A stretch of 64,000 nt of DNA, from the NCBI RefSeq assembly GCF_965222475.1, contig NZ_CBDCUB010000003.1, positions 83,073 through 147,072 on the forward strand, in the 5' to 3' direction. Source of the stretch: Candidatus Palauibacter sp. Its GTDB lineage: Bacteria; Gemmatimonadota; Gemmatimonadetes; Palauibacterales; Palauibacteraceae. The notes below the pieces were generated by a model. The model worked only from the letters and a program-made list of their open reading frames with translations. It was not told the origin of the DNA and searched no databases. The position numbers and the translations under genes were made by a program. Below, piece after piece: positions 6,170 through 62,522 of this stretch (positions within the stretch are counted from its first letter, which is position 1; every line of letters begins with the position of its first letter).

Positions 6170-8749
6170 GTGTACTCCGTGACCTGTTTCCGGCTGCGTC
6201 TGATCGCGTTTCTTCTCTTCCTCATCCCCGCGTCGACGGCCGCGCAGGACTCCGGGGGCGAGCTCCCGTCGATCGAGGAAAAGACGGCTTCGATGCGGGC
6301 CATCGACGGCTTCGTCCCCATGTATTGGGAGGCGTCGAGCGGCAAGCTGTGGCTGGAGATCTCCCGCTGGGAGACCGACATCCTCCACATGACGGGGCTC
6401 GCCTCGGGGCTGGGTTCGAACGACATCGGACTCGACCGGGGGGCGCTCGCCGGCTCGCGCCTCGTGCGCTTCCAGCGGGTGGGGCCCAAGGTGCTGCTGA
6501 TCCAGCCCAACCTCGACTTCAGGGCAAGCAGCCCGAACCCGCGCGAGGTACAGGCGGTGACGGACGCGTTCGCGCCCTCCACGCTGTGGGGCTTCACTGC
6601 GGCGGCGGAGACGGACGGGCGCGTCCTCGTCGATGCGACGGACTTCGTCGTCCGGGACATGATCAACTGGGCCCAGCGGCTACGGCCGGGGACGTACCGG
6701 TTCGATGCGAGCCGGAGCGCGGTCCACCTCCCGATGACGATGGGGTTCCCGGAGAACACCGAGATCGAGGCCTCCCTCACCTTCGTCCGCCAGCCGGGGG
6801 CCGGGGGCGGAGGCTTCGGCGGTTTCGGGGGCGGGGGCGGAGCGTTCGAGGGTGTCGGAAACGTGGCCTCGACCGGCGAGGCCGCGACGATCCGGCTGCA
6901 TCATTCCTTCGTGCAGCTCCCCGAGTTGGGCGAATACACGCCACGGGCGTTCGATCCGAGGGCCGGTTTCGGCGCCATGAGCTTCGCGGACTACTCCGCG
7001 CCGCTGGGCGAGGACATGCGGCAGCGGTTCATCCGGCGGCACCGGCTCGAGAAGCGGGATCCATCGGCGGCCGCGAGTGATCCGGTCGAGCCCATCGTCT
7101 ACTATCTCGACGCGGGGGCGCCCGAGCCGATCCGAACCGCGCTGCTCGAGGGGGCCCGCTGGTGGAACCAGGCCTTCGAGGCGGCCGGGTTCCGCGATGG
7201 GTTTCAGGTGGAGATGCTGCCGGAGGGCGTGAGTTCGCACGACGTGCGGTACAACGTGATCAACTGGGTGCATCGCTCCACGCGCGGCTGGAGCACCGGG
7301 GGGTCGGTCACGGACCCGCGCACGGGCGAGATCCTCAAGGGCGTCGTGACGCTCGGGTCGCTCCGCTGGCGGCAGGACTACCTGATCGCCGAGGGTCTGC
7401 TCTCCCCCTACGCGAACGGCGACGAGGTGCCGGGGGCCATCGCCGAGTGGGCGCTGGCGCGGATTCGGCAACTGTCGGCGCACGAAGTGGGGCACACGCT
7501 CGGCCTCGGCCACAACTACTACGACAGCAGCCGCGGCCGGATCTCGGTCCTGGACTATCCCCATCCGCTGGTGACCCTGGGGAACGATGGACGGCTCGAC
7601 TACTCCGAGGTCTATGACGTGGACATCGGGGAATGGGACAAGGTCGCGATCACGTACGGTTACTCGGACTTCCCGCCCGGGACCGACGAAACCGCCGAGC
7701 TGCGGCGGATCCTCGACGAGGCGTGGGACGAGGACATCATCTACTTCACGAATCAGGACATCGGGATCCACGCGCGCGCCGACCAGTGGTCGAACGGGGT
7801 GGACGCGGCGGCGGAACTCGACCGGATGATGGAGGTGCGGCGGCACGCGCTGGACCGATTCGGGGAGGCGGCGATCCGCGCCGGCAGGCCGATCGTCACC
7901 GTCGAGGAGGCGCTGGTCCCGCTCTACATGCACCACCGCTATCAGGTGGATGCGGCCGCCTCGATGCTCGGGGGGCTGGAATACATCTACGCGTTCCGCG
8001 GCGACGGGCGGACGCCCATGCGGCGGGTGTCGGGCGATGCGCAACGGGCTGCCCTCGCTGCGTTGGCGGCGACGCTGCGGCCGGCAGAACTCGCGATTCC
8101 GGCGGGGGTGCTCGATCTGCTGCCGCCCCGGCCGCCCGGCTTCGGTCGCTCCCGGGAGACGTTCCCGCGCTACACGGGGCCGGCCTTCGATGCGGTCACG
8201 CCCGCAGTCGTCGCGGCGGACCATACGATCTCCCGGGTGCTGCAGCCGGCGCGGGCCGCCCGATTGGTGGAACAGCACGCGCTCGACCCGGAGTTGCCGG
8301 GGCTCGACGAAGTTCTGATAGCGCTCGTCGACGGAGTTCGGCCCGCGGCGAACGAGACGCCGTACCACACGGAACTGCGGCTCGCGGCCTACCGCGTGCT
8401 CGTGGACCGAATCATGGCGCTGGCGGAAGGGGCCCCGATGCCGCATGTACGGGCCATCGCCACGCATCGGCTGGTGGAGCTGCGAGCCGAGATGGCGGCG
8501 AACCCGCCGCCGGAGAGGGACGCCGCCTTCGTGCACCTGATCGACCGCGACATCGAGCGCTTCCTCGACAAGCCGTCGTCGCCGTACGAGATGCCGGGGA
8601 CGCCGAACGCGCCGCCGGGCGCTCCAATCGGGCAGCCGGCCATGGACTGGCTAGCGGGCGAAGCCTGGACCGCCGCCGGTCCCGCGGGCTGGGCAACGCG
8701 GTGGCTTGGCATCTCCCCTGTCTGTGAAGCTGACCGAGGCGGTTTCTGA
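6170..8749 (+). CDS. Secreted zinc-dependent metalloprotease (DUF5117/DUF4953 EcxA-like)
   Basis: HEVGHTLGLGH (HExxHxxGxxH), DPRTGEILKG, signal peptide; GTG start with GGAGG upstream. Confidence 0.9.
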   Translation: MYSVTCFRLRLIAFLLFLIPASTAAQDSGGELPSIEEKTASMRAIDGFVPMYWEASSGKLWLEISRWETDILHMTGLASGLGSNDIGLDRGALAGSRLVRFQRVGPKVLLIQPNLDFRASSPNPREVQAVTDAFAPSTLWGFTAAAETDGRVLVDATDFVVRDMINWAQRLRPGTYRFDASRSAVHLPMTMGFPENTEIEASLTFVRQPGAGGGGFGGFGGGGGAFEGVGNVASTGEAATIRLHHSFVQLPELGEYTPRAFDPRAGFGAMSFADYSAPLGEDMRQRFIRRHRLEKRDPSAAASDPVEPIVYYLDAGAPEPIRTALLEGARWWNQAFEAAGFRDGFQVEMLPEGVSSHDVRYNVINWVHRSTRGWSTGGSVTDPRTGEILKGVVTLGSLRWRQDYLIAEGLLSPYANGDEVPGAIAEWALARIRQLSAHEVGHTLGLGHNYYDSSRGRISVLDYPHPLVTLGNDGRLDYSEVYDVDIGEWDKVAITYGYSDFPPGTDETAELRRILDEAWDEDIIYFTNQDIGIHARADQWSNGVDAAAELDRMMEVRRHALDRFGEAAIRAGRPIVTVEEALVPLYMHHRYQVDAAASMLGGLEYIYAFRGDGRTPMRRVSGDAQRAALAALAATLRPAELAIPAGVLDLLPPRPPGFGRSRETFPRYTGPAFDAVTPAVVAADHTISRVLQPARAARLVEQHALDPELPGLDEVLIALVDGVRPAANETPYHTELRLAAYRVLVDRIMALAEGAPMPHVRAIATHRLVELRAEMAANPPPERDAAFVHLIDRDIERFLDKPSSPYEMPGTPNAPPGAPIGQPAMDWLAGEAWTAAGPAGWATRWLGISPVCEADRGGF

Positions 8750-8754
8750 CGGCG

Positions 8755-8773
8755 ACGTTCCCGCGGGAACGCG
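8755..8773. repeat. 19-bp repeat copy 1, containing the perfect 16-bp palindrome CGTTCCCGCGGGAACG
   Basis: ACGTTCCCGCGGGAACGCG, identical to 9608-9626; lies between two convergent stop codons. Confidence 0.9.
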
Positions 8774-8782
8774 AGGGGCGTG

Positions 8783-9412
8783 TCAGCGCGGGTTCCGGAT
8801 AGCGCGGATCGCTTCCAGAACCTGCTGCTGATTCGTGCGCATGTCCGAGCGGATGTCGCTGACCGCCGTCGTCATATCCGAGCGGAGCCCCACGATCTCG
8901 GCCGTCATGTCCGAGCGGAGCCCGCGCACCTCCTCGCGGACCTCGCCGATGGCGGCGGTGAGCCGCTGGTCGACTCGCTCTATTCGGGTCTCCACATGCT
9001 TCAGATCGTTGTTCCGGAGCTGGCCGATCGCCGCCTTCATGTCGGAGCGGACGCCGTCGATCGCCGCCGTCATGTCCGTACGGACGCCGTCGATCGCCGC
9101 CTTCAAGTCCGAACGGAGGCTGCGGCTCTCGGTCTTCATGTCCGAACGGACCCCACCGATCTCGGCCTTCATCTCCGCGCGCACGCCGGCGATCCCCGTC
9201 GCCATGTCCGCGCGCACGCCGGCGATCCCCGTCGTCATGTCCGTGCGCACGCCGGCGATCCCCGTCGCCATGTCCGTGCGCACGCCGGCGATCCCCGTCG
9301 TCATGTCCGTACGAAGGGCTCGAAGGATCCGCCAGAGCACGAGGATTACGGAGGCGCCGGTTCCGACAGCGGTTCCGGCGGCGGTAACTACCGCAAGGGC
9401 GACGTCGCTCAT
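8783..9412 (-). CDS. Membrane-anchored coiled-coil protein with 11-aa (hendecad) repeats (CCDC90/DUF1640-like)
   Basis: Hydrophobic N-terminus from MSDVALAVV, then repeats of IAGVRTDMTTG type; start at 9412 inferred. Confidence 0.75.
   Translation of the reverse strand: MSDVALAVVTAAGTAVGTGASVILVLWRILRALRTDMTTGIAGVRTDMATGIAGVRTDMTTGIAGVRADMATGIAGVRAEMKAEIGGVRSDMKTESRSLRSDLKAAIDGVRTDMTAAIDGVRSDMKAAIGQLRNNDLKHVETRIERVDQRLTAAIGEVREEVRGLRSDMTAEIVGLRSDMTTAVSDIRSDMRTNQQQVLEAIRAIRNPR
9180..9311 (-). repeat. Four near-identical 33-bp in-frame tandem units
   Basis: cgcacgccggcgatccccgtcg(c/t)catgtccg(c/t)(g/a) starting at 9180, 9213, 9246 and 9279. Confidence 0.95.
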
Positions 9413-9607
9413 CGCGGCCCTGGGGTCTTCATCAGAGTCAAGCCTTCCTCCTCCCTGATTCAAGCTAGCGCGGTCGGGGCGGTTTCCGGAAACGGACGCG
9501 GGCGGCATCGGGCTGAGGGCGGCGCCTGCCGTCGCAAGCCAAGGATGCAGAGCGGTATGAACCGGCCCTCAACGGGCACGTGGCCGGACCTGGAGATGCG
9601 GAGGGGA

Positions 9608-9626
9608 ACGTTCCCGCGGGAACGCG
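9608..9626. repeat. 19-bp repeat copy 2 with 16-bp palindrome
   Basis: Identical to 8755-8773; immediately downstream of the YfcC-family stop codon. Confidence 0.9.
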
Positions 9627-9633
9627 GGGACCG

Positions 9634-11022
9634 TCAGCTGTACCCGATCGCGATGGCGATCACCAGCGCCACGGCCCCGAGCCCCATCAGCATGAGGTAG
9701 CGCGGGACGACGAAGCGCAGCCACGCCTCGTAGCGGACGCCGCTCGCCGCCAGGATCGCCATCAGCGCGCCGTTCGTCGGCGTGATCAACTCGCACAGCC
9801 CCGCCCCGTACTGGTAGGCGAGGATCGTGATCTGCCGCGAGAGCCCGAGCAGGTCCGACAGCGGCACGAGCACCGGAAGCGTGAGCACCGCCTGGCCGCT
9901 CACGCTGGGCACGGCGAAGTGCAGCACCCCCTGTGCGGCCGACATGCCGATGGCCGAGAGCGCGAGCGGCAGCTCGGCGAGCGGGACGAACAGCCCGCGC
10001 ACGATCGTGTCGATGATCCGCGCGTCGTCCATGACGACGTAGATCGCGTTGGCGAAGCCGATGAGAAGCGCCGCGTACCCCATCGACTTGAAGCCCTGCG
10101 CATACGCCTCGGCCGTCCCCGTGATGCCCAGCCGCCCGACGATCCCGACCACCACACCCATGACGAAGAAGAGCGCGGACATGTGATCGAAATCCCACCC
10201 CAGCGACAGCAGGCCCCACACGAGGACACCGAAAGTGGAGGCGACGATGCCGAAGATGGTCAAGTCCCTCCATCCCGGCGTGGCCTCCGATCCCGCCGCC
10301 TCCACCGTCTCGGCCTCAACCCGGGTCCGGGCCGCGTAACCCATCGTCCACCAGATCCAGAGACCGAGGGCGATGGCCAGGAAGACCAGTCGGAACCCGC
10401 TGCCCGAAAGCGGCGCCACGTCCGCCACCTCCTGCGCGGTCAGGACCTGGAAGGGATTGATGGGACTGAAGGCGGACCCCACGAAGGCGGAACCCGCGCT
10501 CACGGCGACTCCCACCATGGGCGAGTAGCCGAGGCGCCGGGTGAGCAGCATGAGCGCCGGAACGAGCGGGATGATCTCTTCCTGGAGATTCTCCGTTACA
10601 CCGCCCGCCGCGAAGGCGAGCGAGACCACGGGGATCGCGAGGATCTCGCGGCCCTGCAGCCGCTCGACGAGCCAGGCGATGCCGCGCCGGAGCGCCCCCG
10701 TCGCGTCGAACACCGCGAAGGCCCCGCCGATGAGGAAGATCAGGAACACGACATCGGCGCGGCCCGCCATCCCCCGCGGGATGGCCACGATCGCATCGAA
10801 GACCCCGATGCGGTTGGCTTCGACCTCTTGATAGGTCCCCGGCACGACGATGCTGCGCCCGGTCTCCGGATCGTCCCGCCGGTCGTACTCCCCCGCCGGC
10901 AAGACGTACGACAGCGCTGCAGCCGCGAGAACTACCGCCGTCAGCAGGGTCAGCGGGTGCGGAAAACGCAACCTCCGCACCCGTTGGCCGATCCGTCTGT
11001 GAAACGCCCGTGATGTCGCCAT
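9634..11022 (-). CDS. YfcC/DcuC-family transporter
   Basis: FPHPLTLL, LPAGEYDR, PSVSGQAVLTLP, AYQYGAG and ITPT motifs; multi-TM. Confidence 0.88.
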   Translation of the reverse strand: MATSRAFHRRIGQRVRRLRFPHPLTLLTAVVLAAAALSYVLPAGEYDRRDDPETGRSIVVPGTYQEVEANRIGVFDAIVAIPRGMAGRADVVFLIFLIGGAFAVFDATGALRRGIAWLVERLQGREILAIPVVSLAFAAGGVTENLQEEIIPLVPALMLLTRRLGYSPMVGVAVSAGSAFVGSAFSPINPFQVLTAQEVADVAPLSGSGFRLVFLAIALGLWIWWTMGYAARTRVEAETVEAAGSEATPGWRDLTIFGIVASTFGVLVWGLLSLGWDFDHMSALFFVMGVVVGIVGRLGITGTAEAYAQGFKSMGYAALLIGFANAIYVVMDDARIIDTIVRGLFVPLAELPLALSAIGMSAAQGVLHFAVPSVSGQAVLTLPVLVPLSDLLGLSRQITILAYQYGAGLCELITPTNGALMAILAASGVRYEAWLRFVVPRYLMLMGLGAVALVIAIAIGYS

Positions 11023-11183
11023 GAATCCTGAAGGTGTTCGCTGCCCGCCCCGTCTGACAATCCGAGGCGCGGCGTGCTCCCGGTTCGCACGCGCCGCCGC
11101 TCTGGCTCGGACGGGATCGATCCGGCATCATCCACGCGAACAAAGTCTGCCGCCGCCGCGTGGCGGGATGCCGGGACAATCGC

Positions 11184-11609
11184 ATGGAAGGAAGCAGCCT
11201 GGACACGCTCACGGTTCGCGAACGCAGCGAACTGATGAGCCGAATCCGCTCCAAGGACACCAAGCCGGAAATGAGAGTGCGACGGCTCGTCCACGGTCTG
11301 GGCTACCGTTATCGGCTTCACGCGAAGGACCTTCCCGGCCGCCCCGATCTCGTGTTCCGGCCACGTCGCAAGGTGATCTTCGTGCACGGTTGTTTCTGGC
11401 ACCGGCACGAGGGGTGTTCGAAGAATCGCATTCCGAAGTCGCCCGAGACCCGCGACTTCTGGCGCGACAAGCTCAACGGCAACGCCCGGCGCGACCGCCT
11501 CAACGAAGCCACGCTGCAACGCACCGGCTGGGGAGTGCTCGTCATCTGGGAGTGCGAGACGAAGGACCTCGACCCGCTGGCCAAAAGGGTCAGGGCGTTT
11601 CTGGGATAA
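11184..11609 (+). CDS. vsr: Very short patch repair endonuclease
   Basis: RSELMSRIRSKDTKPE, DLPGRPD, FVHGCFWHRH, VLVIWEC; adjacent to a C5-MTase. Confidence 0.95.
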   Translation: MEGSSLDTLTVRERSELMSRIRSKDTKPEMRVRRLVHGLGYRYRLHAKDLPGRPDLVFRPRRKVIFVHGCFWHRHEGCSKNRIPKSPETRDFWRDKLNGNARRDRLNEATLQRTGWGVLVIWECETKDLDPLAKRVRAFLG

Positions 11610-12199
11610 CCTCTCGGCCCTCGGTGAATGCGTTAAGTCGCGCTTCCGCGTCTGCGTTTTCTCTCGGCTGCAGATTGTCCGCCCACGTGCGGCCCGGGTG
11701 GAGCGTATCCCACCACGAACGTCGACCCGCATGTCTCCCGCTGCCGGGGTCATGCAGCCCAAACCCTTCAATGCAGACGTTCCAGCACGGTTGGTAGTGT
11801 TCGATCAGGAAACGTTCGGCCATCGTGATCCATAGTGGAACGACAACTAGGTGGCGGCACGTGAAGTCCGCGAGGCTGAGATTCTCGGCGGCTTCGAGCG
11901 ACCGTACATGTTCTGCAATGCGGCGGTGGAGCACCGGCGCGGATTCGTCCGGGGCGCTACGGCCCGTTCGAGCGCCCGGGGGCACTGCCTTCCCGACGTA
12001 GATCGGTTGCGTGGCATCGGCGGACCGTAGCGTTGCATAGGGCCCGTAGTCACCGTCGTAGAACAGCGCGTATACGCCGGGTCCGGGGAACCGGTCCGGC
12101 AGGGGCAGACCCACGGGCGGGCGACTCATGAGCTCCCGGACCAGATTGACGGTGAGGTTGCCGTAGTCGAGGGGGATCGTAGACCGCAGGTTCAGCCAT
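11590..12199 (-). CDS. Eco29kI-family GIY-YIG type II restriction endonuclease with an apparent +1 frameshift near the N-terminus
   Basis: GVYALFY and IYVGKA GIY-YIG motifs, GFGLHDPG. Removing one base from the G5 run at 12171-12175 joins ATG 12199 (MAEPAVYDPLDYGNL) to the 11590-12129 ORF; span is 3n+1. Confidence 0.85.
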
Positions 12200-13370
12200 C
12201 GCCCTCATTCAGGCGGGCGGCAACGCTCCGTGCGAGGATCGCGGCGAGCCGCATGGGCACGGCGTTTCCAAGTTGCCTCATGGTCTCGGTCCAACTGCCC
12301 GTAAATCGCCAAGCATCAGGGAACGTCTGCAGCCTGGCCGCCTCTCGCACGGTCAGATAGCGTACGCGCCCGCTCGGGAACGCGATCATGTTCTCGCCGC
12401 CCGGCACGCCGTGGACCCCCGCTTTCAGCGTCTTGGCGGGCAGGTCGAGCGGACTGCCCGTGTGTCCCGGGTAAGCCCTCGCACCCGGCTGCAGCCGGTG
12501 GAACAGCGCGCCGGGCTGCTCTCCGGGCTCCCTCGGCCGCGGCAGGCCCGCGATGGCGTCCCGCAGCGTGGCCCAAGGTTTCTTCTCGGGCGGGAATAGC
12601 GTAGGAAGCCGACCGATGGCGCCGGCCAGACGGGCGGGAGGGTTGGGTGCCTCCAACTCGCGCTCTTCCCAGTATTTCCCCGACACCCACTGGTCGTAGT
12701 GGAGCCGCTCGCGCGAGTGGGTCGGTTCCGGAAAATGCCAGTCGGCATCGAGATCTCGCCGGAAGCCCACGATGAACACGCGTTCTCGAGTCTGCGGTAC
12801 TCCGTAGTCGGCCGCGTTCAGCAGACGACGTACGATTCGGTAGTGAAGCCCGTCGCGGTCGCCGCGCGTATGCACGTCCTCAAGCCGCGCGAGATGATCC
12901 TCCCAAGTGTCGCCAAGGCGCGCGACAACCTCGGGATGCTGAAGCCGCAACTCAATGTAGGAGAGATAGTTCCGGAAAGCGGTACGGGTCAGCCCCTTCA
13001 CGTTCTCGAAGATGAACGCGTCGGGTTGGACCTCGCGGATGGCGCGGATGAACTCCGGAATCATGTCCCGCCCGTCGTCCATCCCCCGGTGTTTGCCGCC
13101 GATACTGAAGGGTTGGCACGGCGGACCGCCCGCGACCAGCCGGACGGGACCGAACGAGGCGTAGTCACAACTGCGGACATCGCCTTCAACGACCGTCCAA
13201 TCCGACACTCCGGTAACGGTGTCGCGTCGGATGTTCTCGCGGAGCGTGGCGCACGCTTCGCGGTTCCAATCCAGCAGCGCCGCATGCCGAAAACCCGCTG
13301 CGTGGGTTCCGAGGGCGAGCCCGCCCGCGCCCGTGAACAGCTCCAGCGCTCGCCGCGCCGACGTCACCAA
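12192..13370 (-). CDS. dcm: DNA (cytosine-5)-methyltransferase
   Basis: ELFTGAGG (I), GGPPCQPFS (IV), FENVKGL (VI), QTRERVF (VIII), TVREAARLQTFP (IX), QLGNAVP (X). Confidence 0.95.
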   Translation of the reverse strand: MVTSARRALELFTGAGGLALGTHAAGFRHAALLDWNREACATLRENIRRDTVTGVSDWTVVEGDVRSCDYASFGPVRLVAGGPPCQPFSIGGKHRGMDDGRDMIPEFIRAIREVQPDAFIFENVKGLTRTAFRNYLSYIELRLQHPEVVARLGDTWEDHLARLEDVHTRGDRDGLHYRIVRRLLNAADYGVPQTRERVFIVGFRRDLDADWHFPEPTHSRERLHYDQWVSGKYWEERELEAPNPPARLAGAIGRLPTLFPPEKKPWATLRDAIAGLPRPREPGEQPGALFHRLQPGARAYPGHTGSPLDLPAKTLKAGVHGVPGGENMIAFPSGRVRYLTVREAARLQTFPDAWRFTGSWTETMRQLGNAVPMRLAAILARSVAARLNEGDG

Positions 13371-21993: not shown

Positions 21994-22449
21994 TCAGGCG
22001 GTGTCGGCGGCCGCATCCGGCAGAGGAACTCCGAACACCTTGTCCTCGAGGCGGGCCACCCGATCGGTCACAGCGACGCGGGTCTCAACGAGTTCCTCGC
22101 GGACGGCGTCGATTCGACGACCCAGTCGGCCCTCGACTGCGCGGAGTTCGGTGCGCACACCCGCAATCTCACCCCGGAGCTCGGTGCGGACGGAAATGAT
22201 CTCGGTGCGCAGGCCCGCGACCTCCCGATCAAGCTTGTCACGGACACCGGTGATCTCGCCCCAAAGTTCGTCACGGACGCCTGTGATCTCACCCCGAAGT
22301 TCGTCGCGGACGCCGCCCAGTTCGGCGCGGAATTCCTTCATCTCGGCGCTGAGCTTGCGGATGGCGGCGAAGGTGAGGCCACCGATCGTTCCGCCCACGC
22401 CGATGACGGTGAGCATCAGGGTAATGATTCCAGACACGTCCAATCCCAT
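21994..22449 (-). CDS. Second membrane-anchored 11-aa-repeat coiled-coil protein
   Basis: N-terminal TM segment (IITLMLTVIGVGGTIGGLTF), then (G/E)ITGVRDELRG-type repeats; convergent with the upstream gene. Confidence 0.75.
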   Translation of the reverse strand: MGLDVSGIITLMLTVIGVGGTIGGLTFAAIRKLSAEMKEFRAELGGVRDELRGEITGVRDELWGEITGVRDKLDREVAGLRTEIISVRTELRGEIAGVRTELRAVEGRLGRRIDAVREELVETRVAVTDRVARLEDKVFGVPLPDAAADTA

Positions 22450-56523: not shown

Positions 56524-58773
56524 GTGCGGCGGGCGTCGCTTCTCGTCCTCTTCTTCCTGTCGGGGATCAGCGGGCTGGTGTACCAGATCGCATGGGTGCG
56601 GCAGTCCATCTTCACGTTCGGGGTCAGCGTCTACGCCTACAGCGCGGTCATCGGCGCGTACATGATCGGCCTCGCACTGGGCAGCTACGTCATGGGCCGG
56701 CGGATCGACGCCCACGCGCGGCCGCTGGGCACCTATGCGCTGCTGGAAGTGGGGATCGCCGTCCTGGCCGCGCTGTCGCCGTTCCTGCTCGGCGCGCTGC
56801 ACGGTGCATATCCCGGGCTCAGCAACGCCCTCCCGGCCGGAGGTTTCTGGCTCACGCTGATCCGGCTCGTCTTCTCGCTGGCCGTGCTCACGCCGGCGAC
56901 GTTCCTGATCGGGGCCACGCTCCCGGTCATGAGTCGCGTCTACGCGACGCACGGAGGCCGGATCGGGAGCGACGTGGGGTGGCTCTACCTCGTCAACACG
57001 GCGGGCGCCGCGGCAGGGTGCGTCCTAACGGGGCTCGTGTTCCTCCGCTACCTGGGGGCTCTGGAGACGATCTTCCTCGGGGTGGCGATCAACCTCCTCG
57101 TCGCCGCGGGCGCCCTCGCCCTCCCCCGGCTCGCGCGAGCGGGGACGGCGGCCGCCGAGCCGGCACCGGGCGGGGCTGAGGCGGGAGCCGGAGATCCGGA
57201 CGCCACGCGGGGGCGCCCGGGACCTCCGATTTCGGCGCGGGCGCTCAGGTACATCGCGGTGGCCTACGGCCTGTCCGGCTTCATCGCCCTCGGCTACGAA
57301 GTCGTGTGGGCCCGAATCCTCTACATCCACACGTCGCACGCGGCCTATTCGTTCGCTCTCATGCTGACGGTCTTTCTGGCCGGGCTGGCTCTCGGAAGCG
57401 CGGGGGGCAGCTGGATCCTGCGGCGGCGACGGGCGGCGCTGCGAGACTTCGGAGCCCTCCAGCTGGCGGTCGGGCTGCTGGCCATCCTCATCCTGTATGT
57501 GTTCGCGCGGCTCCCGTCCTTCCACTTCCAGGAGAGGCTCGGCGGCTACACCGTCCCGTACGAGTTTCTCATCGCCTTCGTCACCATCTTTCCGCCCACT
57601 CTCCTGCTGGGGGCGATGTTCCCCGTCGTGGGCAGTCTCTACACGCGCGAGCGCGCGGAATCCGTGGGCCTGCGCATCGGACGCGTGAACGCGCTCAATA
57701 CGGTGGGCGCCATCGTGGGCTCGATCGGGACGGGGTTCCTGCTCGTGCCCCTCCTCGGCCTCCGCAACACGACGGTGGCGCTGGCGGCGCTGAACCTCCT
57801 GATCGGGGCGGGCGGGATCCTGCTCGATCGCGGCGCGGGGCGCATTCTCCGCTGGGCGCCGGCGGGGGCGGCCGCCGCCCTCATCCTGGGGGTGGCCGTC
57901 CTGCCGACCGGCTACTACCTCGGCTCGTACTACGAGGAGGCCGACCGCCTCATCTTCTACAAGGAGGGCGTCGAGACGACGGTCGCCGTACTCGAGGTCC
58001 CCGAGGACGACTTGAAGATCTCCTTCGTCAACGGCCGCGACGAAGTGCCGACCGACCGGCAGAGCATGGCGGCCTTCCGGTTGCTGGGTCACCTGCCGCC
58101 GCTCATCCGGCCGGGGGCCCGCAACGCGCTCGTGCTGAGCTTCGGGAACGGGATCGCGACGGGCACCATGGACACGCACGCGATCCCTGTGATCGACGCC
58201 GTCGACCTCTCGCCGGAGATGATCGAGGCCGCGGCCGTCTATGCGGAGGAGAACTACAGCGTCCTCGAGAGCGACAGGCTCCGCCTGCACGTGGAGGACG
58301 GGCGCAACTTCCTCCTTCGGACGGAGGATCGCTACGACATCATCTCGGTGGACGCGACGCATCCCGCGAACGCGAGCTCGTGGGCGCTGTTCACGAGCGA
58401 GTTCTACCGGTTGATCGAGAGTCGGCTCGCCGAGGACGGGGTGTTCATGCAGTGGATACCCATCCACGGCGTCCGGGAGAGCGACTACCGGGACATCCTG
58501 CGCACCGTCTGGGATATCTTCCCGCAGATGGTGCTGTGGTCTACGGGGTCGACGCACACGTACGTGGTCGCGACGCGGGAACCGATGACGGCGGTGGTGA
58601 TGCAGTCGATCCTCGCGCGCGCGGCCGCCAACCCGACCGTGGTGCGAGACCTCGGATCGCCGGAGACGATCGCGGGATATGTCTCGATGGTCGGTTCGGA
58701 CCTCACGCGCTACATCGGCCGCGGACCGGTCATCACGGACAACGACGCGTTCTTCATGCCCGGCCGTGACTAG
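56524..58773 (+). CDS. Fused MFS-like membrane domain / spermidine synthase-like methyltransferase
   Basis: FFLSGISGLVYQIAW, GATLPV, NTAGA, EDGRNFL, YDIISVD, LAEDGVFMQW. Confidence 0.88.
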   Translation: MRRASLLVLFFLSGISGLVYQIAWVRQSIFTFGVSVYAYSAVIGAYMIGLALGSYVMGRRIDAHARPLGTYALLEVGIAVLAALSPFLLGALHGAYPGLSNALPAGGFWLTLIRLVFSLAVLTPATFLIGATLPVMSRVYATHGGRIGSDVGWLYLVNTAGAAAGCVLTGLVFLRYLGALETIFLGVAINLLVAAGALALPRLARAGTAAAEPAPGGAEAGAGDPDATRGRPGPPISARALRYIAVAYGLSGFIALGYEVVWARILYIHTSHAAYSFALMLTVFLAGLALGSAGGSWILRRRRAALRDFGALQLAVGLLAILILYVFARLPSFHFQERLGGYTVPYEFLIAFVTIFPPTLLLGAMFPVVGSLYTRERAESVGLRIGRVNALNTVGAIVGSIGTGFLLVPLLGLRNTTVALAALNLLIGAGGILLDRGAGRILRWAPAGAAAALILGVAVLPTGYYLGSYYEEADRLIFYKEGVETTVAVLEVPEDDLKISFVNGRDEVPTDRQSMAAFRLLGHLPPLIRPGARNALVLSFGNGIATGTMDTHAIPVIDAVDLSPEMIEAAAVYAEENYSVLESDRLRLHVEDGRNFLLRTEDRYDIISVDATHPANASSWALFTSEFYRLIESRLAEDGVFMQWIPIHGVRESDYRDILRTVWDIFPQMVLWSTGSTHTYVVATREPMTAVVMQSILARAAANPTVVRDLGSPETIAGYVSMVGSDLTRYIGRGPVITDNDAFFMPGRD

Positions 58774-61700
58774 CGTCCGGAGCCTCGGGAGTCCCAGACC
58801 TCGACCGGCACCGGGCCGATCCTGAGCGCGTCCGGGTTCACCCACGGCCGCGCGCCGTACGGCCGCTGCCGCGGCCACACCTCGTCCAGCGTCTCGCCCA
58901 CATAGAGCCGCCCGTCCTTCATCACGTAGGCGATGTCTTCCGTGTTGCGGATGTCGTCGAGCGGGTTCGAGTTCAGCACCATGAGGTCGGCGAGCTTCCC
59001 CACCGAGATCGTCCCCAGGTCGTCCTCCGCTCCGAGGAAATAGGCCCCCTCTACGCTCGCGAGTTCGAGCGCACCCATGGGCCCGAGGGCGGTGGCCGCC
59101 ATCCACACCTCCCAGTGGGAGCAGATGCCGTGCTGCTGGCCGTGCCCGCCGATCGCGCCCCGGCCGCCCTCGGCCATGATGTCGGCCAGACCCTGCGCGA
59201 CGATGGGGAAGATGTAGTCCGTCTTCGGGCGCAGCGCCCGCCGCCGCGTGTGGCCCACGAGTTGCTGCCACGGCATCCAGGCACGGAGCTTCTCGCTCAG
59301 CCACACGTCGCTCTCGCCGAACCAGTATTCGTCGCTCCAGGGCCCGGCCCGCGTGTTGAAGGTGGGGGAGTACACCGCCTCCGCCCGGCCGAAGAACTTC
59401 GCCACATCCCCGTAGATCGGCGCGTAGGTCAGCGAGTGCTCCCACGCCGTCTGGCCGTCCATGATCTTGGTCAGGTTGTGCAGCAGGTCGTTCCCCTGCG
59501 AGGTCACCATGAGGCCGCGGCGGCGTGCGATGTCCGAGACCCACTGCCGCTGGTCGCGCCGCGGCTGCAGGTACTGCTTGATGGAGACCGCGCCCCACGA
59601 CTGGAGCCGCTCGATCTCCTCCTCCGCCACTTCGTACGAAGTGATGTCGTTCTGGCGTGCGGCGTCGCCGAGGTAGAGCGGGTCGCCGGTGCTGTACGTG
59701 CGGGGGCCGATCAGCATCCCGGCTTCGATGAGTTCGGCCGCCGGGAAGACGTCCTGCGACCACATCGAGTTGTCCATGTTGCTCGTGACGCCGTAGGCGA
59801 GCGGGACTGCCGCCTCGAACGCCTTCATGGGGATGATGCCGCGGTACTCGCGGAAGAAGTGCGAGTGCATGTCGATGAAACCGGGGATGATCGTCTTCCC
59901 CGCCAGCGACGTGACGCGGTCCGCCCGCGAGGTGTCGCACTCGCCGACGCAGGCGATCCGCCCGTCGCTTACGAGCACGGTCCCGGACCCGATCACCTGG
60001 CGATCCTCGAGCGTGATGATCCGGGCATCGGTGAGGGCGATCGTCCCCGCGGCGAAGTCCCGCTGCACGCGCAGGTCGACCTCTACCGTGTCGGCCCGCT
60101 CCGCGTCGACGTCGTACGCGATGTACGTCGGGCCGCTCCCGAACTGGACCGTACGCGCGTCCCGCCACGACGGGAAGAGCCCCCCCGTTCGGCTCAGGCG
60201 GCGGACTGGCAGCGTCCCCTTCTTCTTGTCGATCTCGACCGTCCCGCCCCCTGTCCCCGACTCGGGGAACGGGGTCAGGTAGACGTTGTCCCCCTCGTTG
60301 AAGGCGATCCAGTCTCCGGCGGGAGAGATCACGATCTCATCCGCGAACGGGAAGCTTGCGTGCTCCCGCCGGTCGCTCCCGTCGCGGCGCACCGAGACCA
60401 GCGTGGAGGCCTCGCCGCGTTCCATTCCCAATTGGGGATAGAAGATCCTGCCGTCCGGCCCGAACGATGGGCGCACGAATTGTGTGCGCGTGGAGAGGGT
60501 GGGTCCGGAAACGCGGGTCACCTCGGCCGCAGGACCCCCATTGGCCGGGAGGAGGACGATGTCGAACCAGGGGCCGTGCGCGTAGGTGCGGGTGCGGGCG
60601 GTCACGCCCGAGCCGCGGACGACCAAGATCCGCTCGCCGTCCGTGCTCCACACCGTCTGGCTGTATTCCCCGTATTCCTCCGACAACTGAACCGGTTCCG
60701 CGCCGCCGTCCCCGACCCGGGCCTTCCACACATGGCCCGCGCCCGCTTCGTCGACGCTCGTGAACGCGATCCACTCGCCGTCGGGCGACCACGCCGGGGA
60801 GTACTCGAAATCGGTGAACGAGTCCGGCGTCAGCCGGCGCGGCGTTCCCGCGGGAACGTCCATGACCCACACCTTGCCCACCGCCTGGAAGGCCAGCCGG
60901 CGGCCATCGGGCGAACCGACCTGCCAGCGCGTGAAGCGAGCGCGGAACTCGCCCTCATGGATGTCGATGGGGGCGTATGCCTGCTCCGAGATCACCCGGT
61001 GGACGCGCGCCTCGAAGGGGATCGTCTCCACTTCCCCGCTCTCGACGTCCAGGCGGCGGATCTTCCCGCCCTGGGCGAGGACGATGGACCGCCCGTCGCG
61101 AGACCACGCGTAGCCGGGCAGGACGCGCAGCGTGTTCGTGTCCTCGACCATGTCGCGCTCGATCGGGTCCATGATCACGCGTTCCGCGCCGGTGCGGAGG
61201 TCGCGCAGCCAGAGTGCCGTGCGCGGGCCGTACTCGTGCCCCTTCCACACGATCGTGCCGTCCGGAATCCGCCGCGCGAAGGCGAGCCAGCGCCCATCCG
61301 GCGACACTTCGGGCGCCCACGCGCCTCCGCTCGAGAGCCTGTACTGACGGGACGGCTCCCCGTGCGTGATAGAGATGATGTCGCCGCTCCGCAGGTCCAT
61401 GCGGCGCAGGTTGTACGCTCCCTGGAGGGCGTCGCGCTCGGCGGCCGGCGGCCCCGCGTGGTCGTCGAACCCATCGAACCCAGGATCGGCGAAGGCCACC
61501 CCCTGCCCCGGCGTACTGATGTGGAAGTACAGGGAGCGGCCATCCGCGGAGACCGAAGGCCAAGAGGGGTTCTCGACCTCGTCCCCCACGAGTTCCACGC
61601 CTGCCCCGCCGTCCCGGTGGTACATCCAGATCCCGCGCGCCCGCGCGCCGTCCAGTTCGTAGCGGCGTACCACGATGTAGCGGCTATCCGGCGTCCACGC

Positions 61701-62183
61701 GGGCTCGACCACGCGCACGTCCATATCCTCGAACACGGGCCGGGGGTTTCCGCCGTCGGCGTCCATCACCCAGAGGTTGTTCTGGCCTCCACGGTCCGAC
61801 ACGAAGGCGATCAAAGCGCCATCGGGCGAGATGCGGGGGTGGAAGTTGATCGCCACGCCGCTGTTCTGCGTAAGGGCGACGGCTTCGCCTCCTTCCGCCG
61901 ACACGCGGTACACGTGCCCGAGGAGGTCGAACACGACCCAGCCGCCGTCGGGGGCGACATCGACCGACATCCAGGTCCCCTCGCGGGTCGTGAAGTCGAT
62001 CTCGCGCGTCTCGCCGTACGCACCCGTGACATCCCACGCACCGGCATCCTGGACGCGACTCCGGGGCCCGCCCGGATCGGCCTCCTGCGCGAGCAGCCCA
62101 CCCCCGCTTTCGGGGCAGAGACTTGCGGCTACAGCGACGACGAGGGCGGAAACGAGGACGGGGGTGTGGCGTGACTTCGACAC
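58770..62183 (-). CDS. Secreted amidohydrolase with N-terminal TolB/PD40 beta-propellers
   Basis: REGTWMSVDVAPDG, repeated SPDG blades, PGFIDMHSH, GGHGQQHG, GKLADL; AAGGAGG RBS before GTG 62183. Confidence 0.9.
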   Translation of the reverse strand: MSKSRHTPVLVSALVVAVAASLCPESGGGLLAQEADPGGPRSRVQDAGAWDVTGAYGETREIDFTTREGTWMSVDVAPDGGWVVFDLLGHVYRVSAEGGEAVALTQNSGVAINFHPRISPDGALIAFVSDRGGQNNLWVMDADGGNPRPVFEDMDVRVVEPAWTPDSRYIVVRRYELDGARARGIWMYHRDGGAGVELVGDEVENPSWPSVSADGRSLYFHISTPGQGVAFADPGFDGFDDHAGPPAAERDALQGAYNLRRMDLRSGDIISITHGEPSRQYRLSSGGAWAPEVSPDGRWLAFARRIPDGTIVWKGHEYGPRTALWLRDLRTGAERVIMDPIERDMVEDTNTLRVLPGYAWSRDGRSIVLAQGGKIRRLDVESGEVETIPFEARVHRVISEQAYAPIDIHEGEFRARFTRWQVGSPDGRRLAFQAVGKVWVMDVPAGTPRRLTPDSFTDFEYSPAWSPDGEWIAFTSVDEAGAGHVWKARVGDGGAEPVQLSEEYGEYSQTVWSTDGERILVVRGSGVTARTRTYAHGPWFDIVLLPANGGPAAEVTRVSGPTLSTRTQFVRPSFGPDGRIFYPQLGMERGEASTLVSVRRDGSDRREHASFPFADEIVISPAGDWIAFNEGDNVYLTPFPESGTGGGTVEIDKKKGTLPVRRLSRTGGLFPSWRDARTVQFGSGPTYIAYDVDAERADTVEVDLRVQRDFAAGTIALTDARIITLEDRQVIGSGTVLVSDGRIACVGECDTSRADRVTSLAGKTIIPGFIDMHSHFFREYRGIIPMKAFEAAVPLAYGVTSNMDNSMWSQDVFPAAELIEAGMLIGPRTYSTGDPLYLGDAARQNDITSYEVAEEEIERLQSWGAVSIKQYLQPRRDQRQWVSDIARRRGLMVTSQGNDLLHNLTKIMDGQTAWEHSLTYAPIYGDVAKFFGRAEAVYSPTFNTRAGPWSDEYWFGESDVWLSEKLRAWMPWQQLVGHTRRRALRPKTDYIFPIVAQGLADIMAEGGRGAIGGHGQQHGICSHWEVWMAATALGPMGALELASVEGAYFLGAEDDLGTISVGKLADLMVLNSNPLDDIRNTEDIAYVMKDGRLYVGETLDEVWPRQRPYGARPWVNPDALRIGPVPVEVWDSRGSGR

Positions 62184-62522
62184 GGGAACCTCCTTGAGAT
62201 GAGCCTGGCAGCCTGCAGGAAGCTGGTCCCGGAGCAGCGGCGGCAGCAAGACAACCGTTCTGTGCCGCGCGGGTCGGAGATCGAACTCTTCCCTCGGGGC
62301 AGCGCCTGCAGGTGGGCCAGACGCAGAGCCGTGCCAGACGTTCGAGTGGCCGGAGTCGTCACGCTGGTACGGAGGGGACATCGCGGCGCTCGCGAGTAGG
62401 AAGAGAGTTTCCGGCAAGGACCTCACACCAGTGTCACAACGGGCATGGCTGGCCGCGGCCCGCCTGAGCAACGGTGCGAGATCTCAAGCACTCGTGGGAG
62501 GAGTCAGCGCCCCTGCATCGGC

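Follow-up and report, generated by a model that had tools for sequence, protein, structure and literature searches.

Spontaneous deletions between short direct repeats, which are aided by palindromes and explained by slipped mispairing, are familiar from the classical work on lacI of Escherichia coli, and in Neisseria the so-called minimal mobile elements represent alternative gene contents held between conserved flanks and exchanged by homologous recombination. Repetitive extragenic palindromic (REP) elements and REPINs, which are mobilised by REP-associated tyrosine transposases (RAYTs), form another well-known group. They are short GC-rich extragenic palindromes situated downstream of genes or between convergent ones, sometimes in clusters, and they serve as substrates of rearrangement (PMC3184786, PMC1525189); genome flexibility has been reviewed (PMC3898611). 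The locus described here lies in a stretch of 64,000 nucleotides (contig NZ_CBDCUB010000003.1, positions 83,073 to 147,072; hereafter the window) from Candidatus Palauibacter sp., a member of the order Palauibacterales of the Gemmatimonadota (PMC10469786). In this window the gene of a hendecad-repeat protein is enclosed by two identical direct copies of the 19-mer ACGTTCCCGCGGGAACGCG, the core of which, CGTTCCCGCGGGAACG, is a perfect 16-bp palindrome named PAL below. Palindromic repeats outside genes are known already, as are deletions between direct repeats, and this locus is a further case of both. With moderate confidence, we regard it as probable that PAL is a dispersed 3'-end palindrome, that its two direct copies are a deletion substrate and that the hendecad gene is an old resident of its site rather than a mobile cassette.

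The two 19-mers start 853 bp apart, with their cores at positions 8756-8771 and 9609-9624. The first begins 5 nt past the stop codon of a protease gene (8747-8749) and ends 9 nt short of the stop codon of the minus-strand hendecad gene (8783-8785); the second follows the stop codon of yfcC (9634-9636) and is located 195 nt upstream of the hendecad start codon. The interval between them consists of the hendecad gene and 195 bp of upstream sequence, with nothing else inside. The initial annotation, which had reported the 19-mer after both stop codons, the 16-bp palindrome, the spacing of 853 bp and the hendecad gene as the only enclosed gene, was accurate by exact matching. In 100 dinucleotide-preserving shuffles, PAL matches with up to three mismatches averaged 0.14 and never reached the observed count, and the repeat pair is therefore beyond chance.

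The site between yfcC and the protease gene was compared in 15 orthologous loci from Candidatus Palauibacter: L045 was obtained by scanning species-representative genomes for the 16-mer, L118 and L119 by scanning metagenomes with YfcC, and L131-L133 and L137-L148 as contigs of hendecad and YfcC homologues. The window is colinear with the orthologous loci across its first ~23 kb, and some of the public runs holding the locus are sponge metagenomes by label. As listed in Table 1, the slot is variable: it holds hendecad alleles of two types (in eight lineages, the window included), a lipoprotein-like open reading frame (ORF), or nothing. The empty site predicted by the initial annotation does exist, since in L118, L137 and L139 the convergent yfcC and protease genes lie 30-58 bp apart with one exact PAL between them. 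In L138 the slot (11432-12368) is occupied by an unrelated ORF that matches no family and begins with a lipoprotein-like signal (MVLALVAAVSC...). This slot also keeps a 3' remnant of the hendecad gene (..AIQAIRTPR*) beside the degenerate PAL, which marks another independent loss. In the outgroups L145/146 and L147 the spacer has other hairpins or duplications and restriction-modification genes are missing, the contig of L119 being too short to show such genes.

Table 1. Contents of the yfcC/protease slot and state of PAL in the window and in related loci.
Locus	Hendecad gene	yfcC-side PAL	Protease-side PAL	Remarks
Window	209 aa	exact	exact	
L148	139 aa	exact	1 mismatch	
L131	130 aa	exact	1 mismatch	
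L140	128 aa	1 mismatch	1 mismatch	
L045	194 aa	exact, plus 1-mismatch copy	exact	
L133	138 aa	exact, extended to a 32-bp perfect palindrome	none	
L141	185 aa	none	none	
L143	186 aa	none	none	unrelated hairpins at equivalent positions
L118	absent			30-bp spacer, one exact PAL
L137	absent			58-bp spacer, one exact PAL
L139	absent			34-bp spacer, one exact PAL
L138	absent	none	degenerate	~970 bp slot
L119, L145/146, L147	absent	none	none	outgroups, 75-80% YfcC identity

The direction of change was read from a neighbour-joining tree of 1323 ungapped yfcC nucleotide columns, rooted on L119, in which the loci form two clades: clade A, ((WIN,(L131,L140))100,(L139,L141)92)84, where WIN is the window, and clade B, (L143,(L045,(L138,(L137,(L133,L118)100)82)69)79)95. 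The hendecad gene occurs in both clades, early branches included, and each empty slot is nested beside a gene-bearing sister. The sister of L118 is L133 (96% nucleotide identity, bootstrap 100), and that of L139 is L141 (bootstrap 92). A four-taxon site count also groups L118 with L045, both for yfcC (35 informative sites versus 16 and 18) and for the protease gene (13 versus 7 and 2). Because of this nesting beside gene-bearing sisters, the empty sites are taken as losses and not as unoccupied insertion sites, and the tree would most simply be read as a single ancient gain with, at the minimum, three or four subsequent losses. Insertion or excision with duplication of the site had been put forward in the initial annotation. 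The single-PAL empty sites and the breakpoints inside the repeat agree with that proposal, but its insertion half does not stand, the gene being present in eight lineages of both clades and the direction being that of loss.

The breakpoints in L118 and L139 are informative in this respect. Bases 1606-1636 of L118 align to both PAL copies of the window, and the two BLAST segments of L139 against the window overlap by exactly the 19-mer. In both lineages one copy is kept, the breakpoints fall inside the repeats, and the tree makes the empty state the derived one, as is characteristic of deletion between direct repeats. L118 has the layout of PAL, 6 nt and protease stop that is also found in L045 and L138, and its left flank, 'ccctcaca', is the same as that of its sister L133; since the left flanks of the empty sites match those of their own sisters, separate losses can be argued. 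Judging from these alignments, recombination or slippage between two PAL copies would produce just the structures found in L118 and L139. As in slipped mispairing, the endpoints lie in direct repeats of 16-19 bp, one copy is left, and other slippage products occur nearby: the additional yfcC-side PAL of L045 arises from a 14-nt slipped tandem duplication, and in L148 there is a 52-bp deletion between CTCTGCATCTC repeats. The case differs from the laboratory one in that the process is deduced from natural variation among uncultured lineages and that L137 and L138 used other endpoints. L137 keeps 34 extra nucleotides and L138 carries a replacement, and therefore not all losses used the repeats. 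The CTCTGCATCTC-repeat deletion in L148 (11415-11450, compared with 5805-5890 of L131) removes a conserved TTGA(C/G)GGCCGGTTCATACC block of the hendecad upstream region and leaves the gene intact.

As envisaged here, PAL would constitute a small, low-copy family of dispersed extragenic palindromes in Candidatus Palauibacter, placed immediately 3' of stop codons and resembling REP elements or terminator/3'-end hairpins devoid of a U-tract. The successive minus-strand genes yfcC and the hendecad gene would each end in a PAL copy, and it is for this reason that direct repeats would seem to enclose the hendecad gene. Since the two copies have a few flanking bases in common, the second probably arose by local duplication of the first. 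The hendecad gene itself would be an old, vertically inherited, expressed yet dispensable resident of the yfcC/protease slot. Once present in two direct copies, PAL could promote deletion by short-homology recombination or by replication slippage, such events being favoured by palindromes. The hendecad gene would have been lost in this way, with one PAL kept, from no fewer than two lineages (L118, L139), and in L137 and L138 its loss or replacement would have proceeded via other breakpoints.

The dispersal of PAL is evident from the scan of the genome collection, in which the 16-mer was found at no fewer than 117 loci, a figure that reflects presence and enrichment rather than per-genome counts. 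The exact 16-mer occurs at other loci in at least six further Palauibacter species-representative genomes (L007, L008, L017, L042, L058, L070) and, among the matches listed, also in other Gemmatimonadota such as the Gemmatimonadetes metagenome-assembled genome (MAG) L022; from base composition, ~0.007 occurrences would be expected by chance per 4-Mb genome. PAL lies between convergent genes in L007, between tandem genes just past the upstream stop codon in L008 and L017, and directly after a stop codon in L022. Together with two of the three window copies, these four lie 0-43 nt from the ends of ORFs. At other loci the palindrome is often lengthened by further complementary bases, contigs from the same samples include loci with two PAL copies 15-39 nt apart, and one complete genome has at least two PAL loci (L058 and L131). 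Among the Logan contigs of the source metagenome, a 50-nt stretch around copy 1 matched the contig of the locus itself and no other. The third exact copy in the window (Table 2) had not been reported in the initial annotation; it matches 18 of the 19 bases of ACGTTCCCGCGGGAACGCG and lies in a minus-strand coding sequence that is real. Its chance probability in 64 kb, estimated from base composition, is ~1e-4, and positions 60839-60878 around it are invariant in related-strain contigs that differ on both sides. Nearby, at 60753-60803, contig depth rises to ~1000-1900 over ~50 nt of the PD40 repeat. This stretch is common to many unrelated contigs of the same metagenomes and is a motif conserved in coding sequence, not a mobile repeat.

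The initial annotation had held two things against its own reading, namely a motif dispersed as a REP-like repeat after many genes, and relatives lacking an empty site. The first turned out to be partly the case, given the six or more further Palauibacter genomes and the several copies just after stop codons, and the second is contradicted by the empty sites. In its placement PAL is indeed the same as REP elements, and the tandem copies of L045 and the contigs with two closely spaced copies add to the likeness. On the other hand, the perfect dyad of PAL measures just 16 bp and so falls short of the usual REP length, one copy is found in coding sequence, the flanks are variable (identity 0.45) with no shared GTAG-type 5' tetranucleotide, and the copy number looks low (three in the 64 kb, of which this slot has two), compared with tens to hundreds of REPs per genome. 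No RAYT (Y1 transposase) was present in the gene lists of the fetched loci; whole genomes were not searched.

The same 16-mer is also encountered outside the Gemmatimonadota. Among the matches listed, it is clustered, with two to three copies 27-150 nt apart, in at least several MAGs and isolates of Actinomycetota, including Geodermatophilus, Blastococcus, Brachybacterium and Solirubrobacteraceae (loci L003, L010, L012, L016, L025, L037, L064 and others), and in a Sphaerochaetaceae genome it occurs on several contigs, followed by T runs. From its sequence context, the 16-mer looks REP-like or terminator-like in these unrelated phyla.

The core of PAL is far better conserved than its surroundings. 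On the yfcC side it has a mean pairwise identity of 0.99 in nine lineages versus 0.45 and 0.44 for the 12-nt flanks, and is exact in eight of the nine PAL-bearing lineages; on the protease side, the identity of 0.96 compares with 0.73 and 0.55 for the flanks. Such invariance fits sequence-specific recognition better than a plain hairpin, and PAL may act either as a hairpin at transcript 3' ends or as the site of a sequence-specific protein. In favour of the former, PAL shares with intrinsic terminators a GC-rich dyad 5-9 nt from stop codons, other hairpins occupy the same positions where PAL is absent (L143, L145), and in lower-GC genomes (L024, L028, L106) the 16-mer is followed by T runs. 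The Palauibacter copies differ from intrinsic terminators in having no U-tract, unexceptional folding, no compensatory changes and RNA that crosses copy 1. On either strand PAL is followed by GC-rich sequence, and no Rfam match was obtained for the PAL region. Likewise, no paper on the PAL sequence was found in the searched library. A role as DNA-uptake sequence was rejected, the half-sites not being over-represented outside the three full palindromes. The origin of PAL in situ from the hairpins of L141/L143 was considered as well, and the alignment is too weak to say.

One must bear in mind that several observations weigh against the explanation given above. Outside the slot just one PAL copy is found in ~63 kb of the window, and none occurs elsewhere in the ~20-kb flanks of eight relatives. 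PAL is nearly invariant, without compensatory pairs, and a copy is conserved inside a coding sequence. Neither a U-tract nor a match to a terminator consensus is present (0 terminator-like sites in 8000-11500), the folding of PAL RNA is no better than that of shuffles (z -0.3 to -1.7), and two metatranscriptome contigs cross copy 1, for which DNA carry-over is a possible source. The 58-bp spacer of L137 is no clean product of a PAL-to-PAL event. Moreover, the patchy distribution of PAL, which is lacking from L141 and L143 of different clades, and the discordance of hendecad alleles described below require repeated gain and loss or allelic exchange, and the empty allele need not have arisen anew each time but could have been spread by recombination.

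The hendecad alleles fall into two types, one ending in ..AIRNPR* and followed by PAL, the other ending in ..AIAS* without PAL, and these types do not follow the yfcC tree. The disagreement would imply some exchange of alleles in the slot or very rapid evolution there, and it is a weak signal in a gene that evolves fast by gain and loss of repeats. A fixed slot with alternative contents that disagree with the tree of the flanking gene is reminiscent of the minimal mobile elements of Neisseria, from which the locus differs in that exchange in Palauibacter is only deduced and that a junction palindrome is foreign to those elements.

The hendecad protein begins with ~30 hydrophobic residues, which form an N-terminal helix, and continues with 11-residue repeats, reflected in the gene by 8.7 tandem copies of a 33-nt period (9025-9310). 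AlphaFold2 models it as a single unbroken helix over residues 2-206 with a predicted local distance difference test score (pLDDT) of 90, and the predicted structure fits an N-terminally anchored helical rod. Matches in Pfam (Apolipoprotein, CCDC90-like, DUF1664), in PDB (ApoA-IV) and in NCBIfam (Scy, ZorA) were all sub-threshold. The orthologues measure 128-194 aa, which together with the window gene gives a range of 128-209 aa across lineages, and the gene is dispensable and fast-evolving. Within populations the repeat number is polymorphic, DNA and RNA contigs of the same runs skipping 33 or 99 nt. Only five relatives were found in 5.8 billion proteins: the close ones are all in the yfcC/protease slot, and a distant one (P0005) belongs to an unrelated locus. 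A paralogue at 21994-22449 (minus strand), of ~32% identity, encodes a membrane-anchored 11-residue-repeat protein; it is convergent with its neighbour, with 4 nt separating the stop codons, and a gene resembling it is also present at 23-403 of L138.

In three sponge metatranscriptomes, contigs cover the hendecad gene from ~8867 to ~9448, terminating on its upstream side at ~9442-9448, with zero contigs over yfcC and none over PAL copy 2. Since RNA contigs are found on the hendecad gene and not on yfcC, the gene is expressed, probably from its own promoter; a scan of the locus for the sigma-70 consensus or a canonical promoter gave no match. The upstream region has a second conserved palindrome, GTTTCCGGAAAC (9482-9493), which sits ~35-50 nt upstream of the RNA-contig ends and, to judge from its sequence and position, may be an operator. 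At the same site L131 and L148 have the 16-bp perfect palindrome CGGTTTCCGGAAACCG, and L141 and L143 a different inverted repeat, GTTCGGG..CCCGAAC.

Among the other explanations considered, the one that survives best, though it is still rather unlikely, is that PAL itself is the site of a dimeric DNA-binding protein, either a regulator or a nucleoid protein, that the two copies regulate or insulate the hendecad gene, and that deletion is incidental. The perfect dyad, its base-level conservation on both the yfcC side and in the coding-sequence copy, the RNA contigs that read through copy 1 and the lack of over-representation of half-sites, which makes the full dyad the unit, are all in keeping with such a site. 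However, the intergenic copies are placed at the 3' ends of genes, 5-9 nt from stop codons, rather than at promoters, and copy 2 is ~160 nt upstream of the RNA-contig ends. In addition, L141 and L143 have the gene together with a homologous upstream region and no PAL, and no candidate binding protein was identified.

According to a second alternative, which seems quite improbable, the hendecad gene and one PAL form a cassette that a site-specific recombinase of the host inserts and excises at PAL, in the manner of Xer-dependent dif modules or integron cassettes, so that the empty sites would be unoccupied or excised attachment sites. Such a module would account for the single exact PAL and the breakpoints within the repeat, for a core that is conserved base by base without compensatory variation, as in a protein recognition site, for the differing slot contents and for the discordance of hendecad alleles with the yfcC tree; a PAL copy inside coding sequence is compatible with it too. 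The genes listed for six colinear orthologous loci include no recombinase, transposase or integrase within ~10 kb, which bears out the initial annotation on this point, but a local enzyme is unnecessary if a host enzyme acts. The resemblance to integrons and Xer-dif modules is likewise apparent in a gene between palindromic sites, with no adjacent recombinase and with a single site where the gene is absent.

The cassette suggested in the initial annotation is nevertheless at odds with the behaviour of the gene, which proves independent of the repeats: it is borne by alleles with no PAL (L141, L143) or one (L133), it has in every case been met in this one slot and at none of the other PAL sites, and those of the latter that were examined have a lone PAL flanked by ordinary genes. 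The palindromic direct repeats that were to be looked for at other hendecad genes are missing, both the paralogue and the distant P0005 locus being without PAL. Between the window and L045 the gene has diverged about as much as its flanking genes have, in line with vertical descent. As to the site, the arms of PAL (GTTCCCG/CGGGAAC) do not follow the GTTRRRY/RYYYAAC cores of attC, the perfect dyad leaves no spacer, and there is no IntI nearby; nor do its 16 bp correspond to the 28-bp dif site with its 11-6-11 arrangement. Unlike the promoterless cassettes of an array, the hendecad gene stands alone and has an upstream region of its own (195 bp), and unlike dif modules it has no varied contexts and occurs without sites. 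No true excision or circle junction was seen in public Logan contigs, a search of low power since these contigs drop rare variants. Apparent skips of 835 nt in four runs have a short side of just 18-20 nt, that is, the repeat itself, and the back-jumps represent other loci with two palindromes. If such a module did exist, a host recombinase or nuclease recognizing PAL would form a dif-module-like system in Gemmatimonadota, capable of excision and perhaps of reinsertion.

A third alternative takes its cue from the neighbouring restriction-modification genes (Table 2) and supposes that PAL matters because its central CCGCGG is the target of an Eco29kI-type system. The homologue of Eco29kI noted by the initial annotation about 2 kb away is present, and the endonuclease, Dcm and Vsr genes lie 2-4 kb from PAL and are conserved in all ingroup genomes; outgroups L145 and L147, which are without them, are also without PAL. 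Two degenerate PALs (L045 1342-1371 and L138 12344-12361) show C-to-T changes in CCGCGG (CCGCAG/CTGCGG), as expected from deamination of 5-methylcytosine. Yet this co-occurrence is confounded with phylogeny, the specificity of the enzyme is assigned from family membership only, L141 and L143 have the system and no PAL in the slot, and any GC-rich palindrome may contain CCGCGG. The window has 86 such sites against 95-110 expected, an unremarkable number that justifies the caution, voiced from the outset, that the overlap may be due to chance; avoidance or targeting by restriction was rejected, CCGCGG being only mildly depleted. No functional link between these genes and PAL was found, and the idea as a whole is regarded as very improbable. 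In L131 and L132 (L131 3231-4376) the endonuclease has shrunk to a 66-aa call and fragments, with methylase and Vsr intact.

Least credible of all is that the empty sites are metagenome misassemblies in which the direct repeat collapsed: L118 and L137 are indeed on ~2.5-kb contigs of short-read-style assemblies, but a repeat of 16-19 bp is below the usual assembly k-mers, that of L139 lies within a 502-kb contig, and the three empty sites, each from a different sample and assembly, differ in their flanks and in their places in the tree.

The features of the locus are compiled in Table 2. The protease gene is convergent with the hendecad gene and syntenic in all 15 loci, and proteins 100% identical to the YfcC of the window carry the name YfcC family protein, Candidatus Palauibacter sp.

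Table 2. Features of the window discussed in the text.
Feature	Coordinates	Strand	Basis and remarks
Met-zincin protease DUF5117/DUF4953	6170..8749	+	Pfam PF16313, E 2.9e-56; PF17148, E 7.4e-29
PAL copy 1	8755..8773	.	19-mer between the convergent protease and hendecad-gene stop codons
Hendecad-repeat gene, 209 aa	8783..9412	-	ORF and translation; start MSDVALAVV kept in relatives
Hendecad upstream region	9413..9607	-	conserved blocks in alignments with L045, L131, L148
PAL copy 2	9608..9626	.	same 19-mer; 7 nt downstream of the minus-strand yfcC stop
YfcC/DcuC-family transporter	9634..11022	-	Pfam PF03606, E 1.2e-73
Vsr	11160..11609	+	Pfam
Eco29kI-family endonuclease	11590..12129	-	PF09517, E 4e-54; adjoins Dcm methylase and Vsr genes
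Dcm methylase	12192..13370	-	Pfam
Third exact PAL	60843..60858	.	in PD40 propeller/amidohydrolase coding sequence (58770-62471, minus); encodes VPAGT

What stands out in this picture is that the 16-mer is conserved down to the single base and shows no compensatory changes, which points to sequence-specific recognition. For annotation, it follows that genes bracketed by direct repeats should not be labelled as mobile cassettes without checking relatives. The comparison also defines a small variable slot in the otherwise conserved genomes of Palauibacter. If the explanation favoured here is right, an uncultured, sponge-associated lineage of Gemmatimonadota would provide a clean natural example in which copies of a short dispersed palindrome, standing behind each of two adjacent genes, render the gene between them prone to loss.

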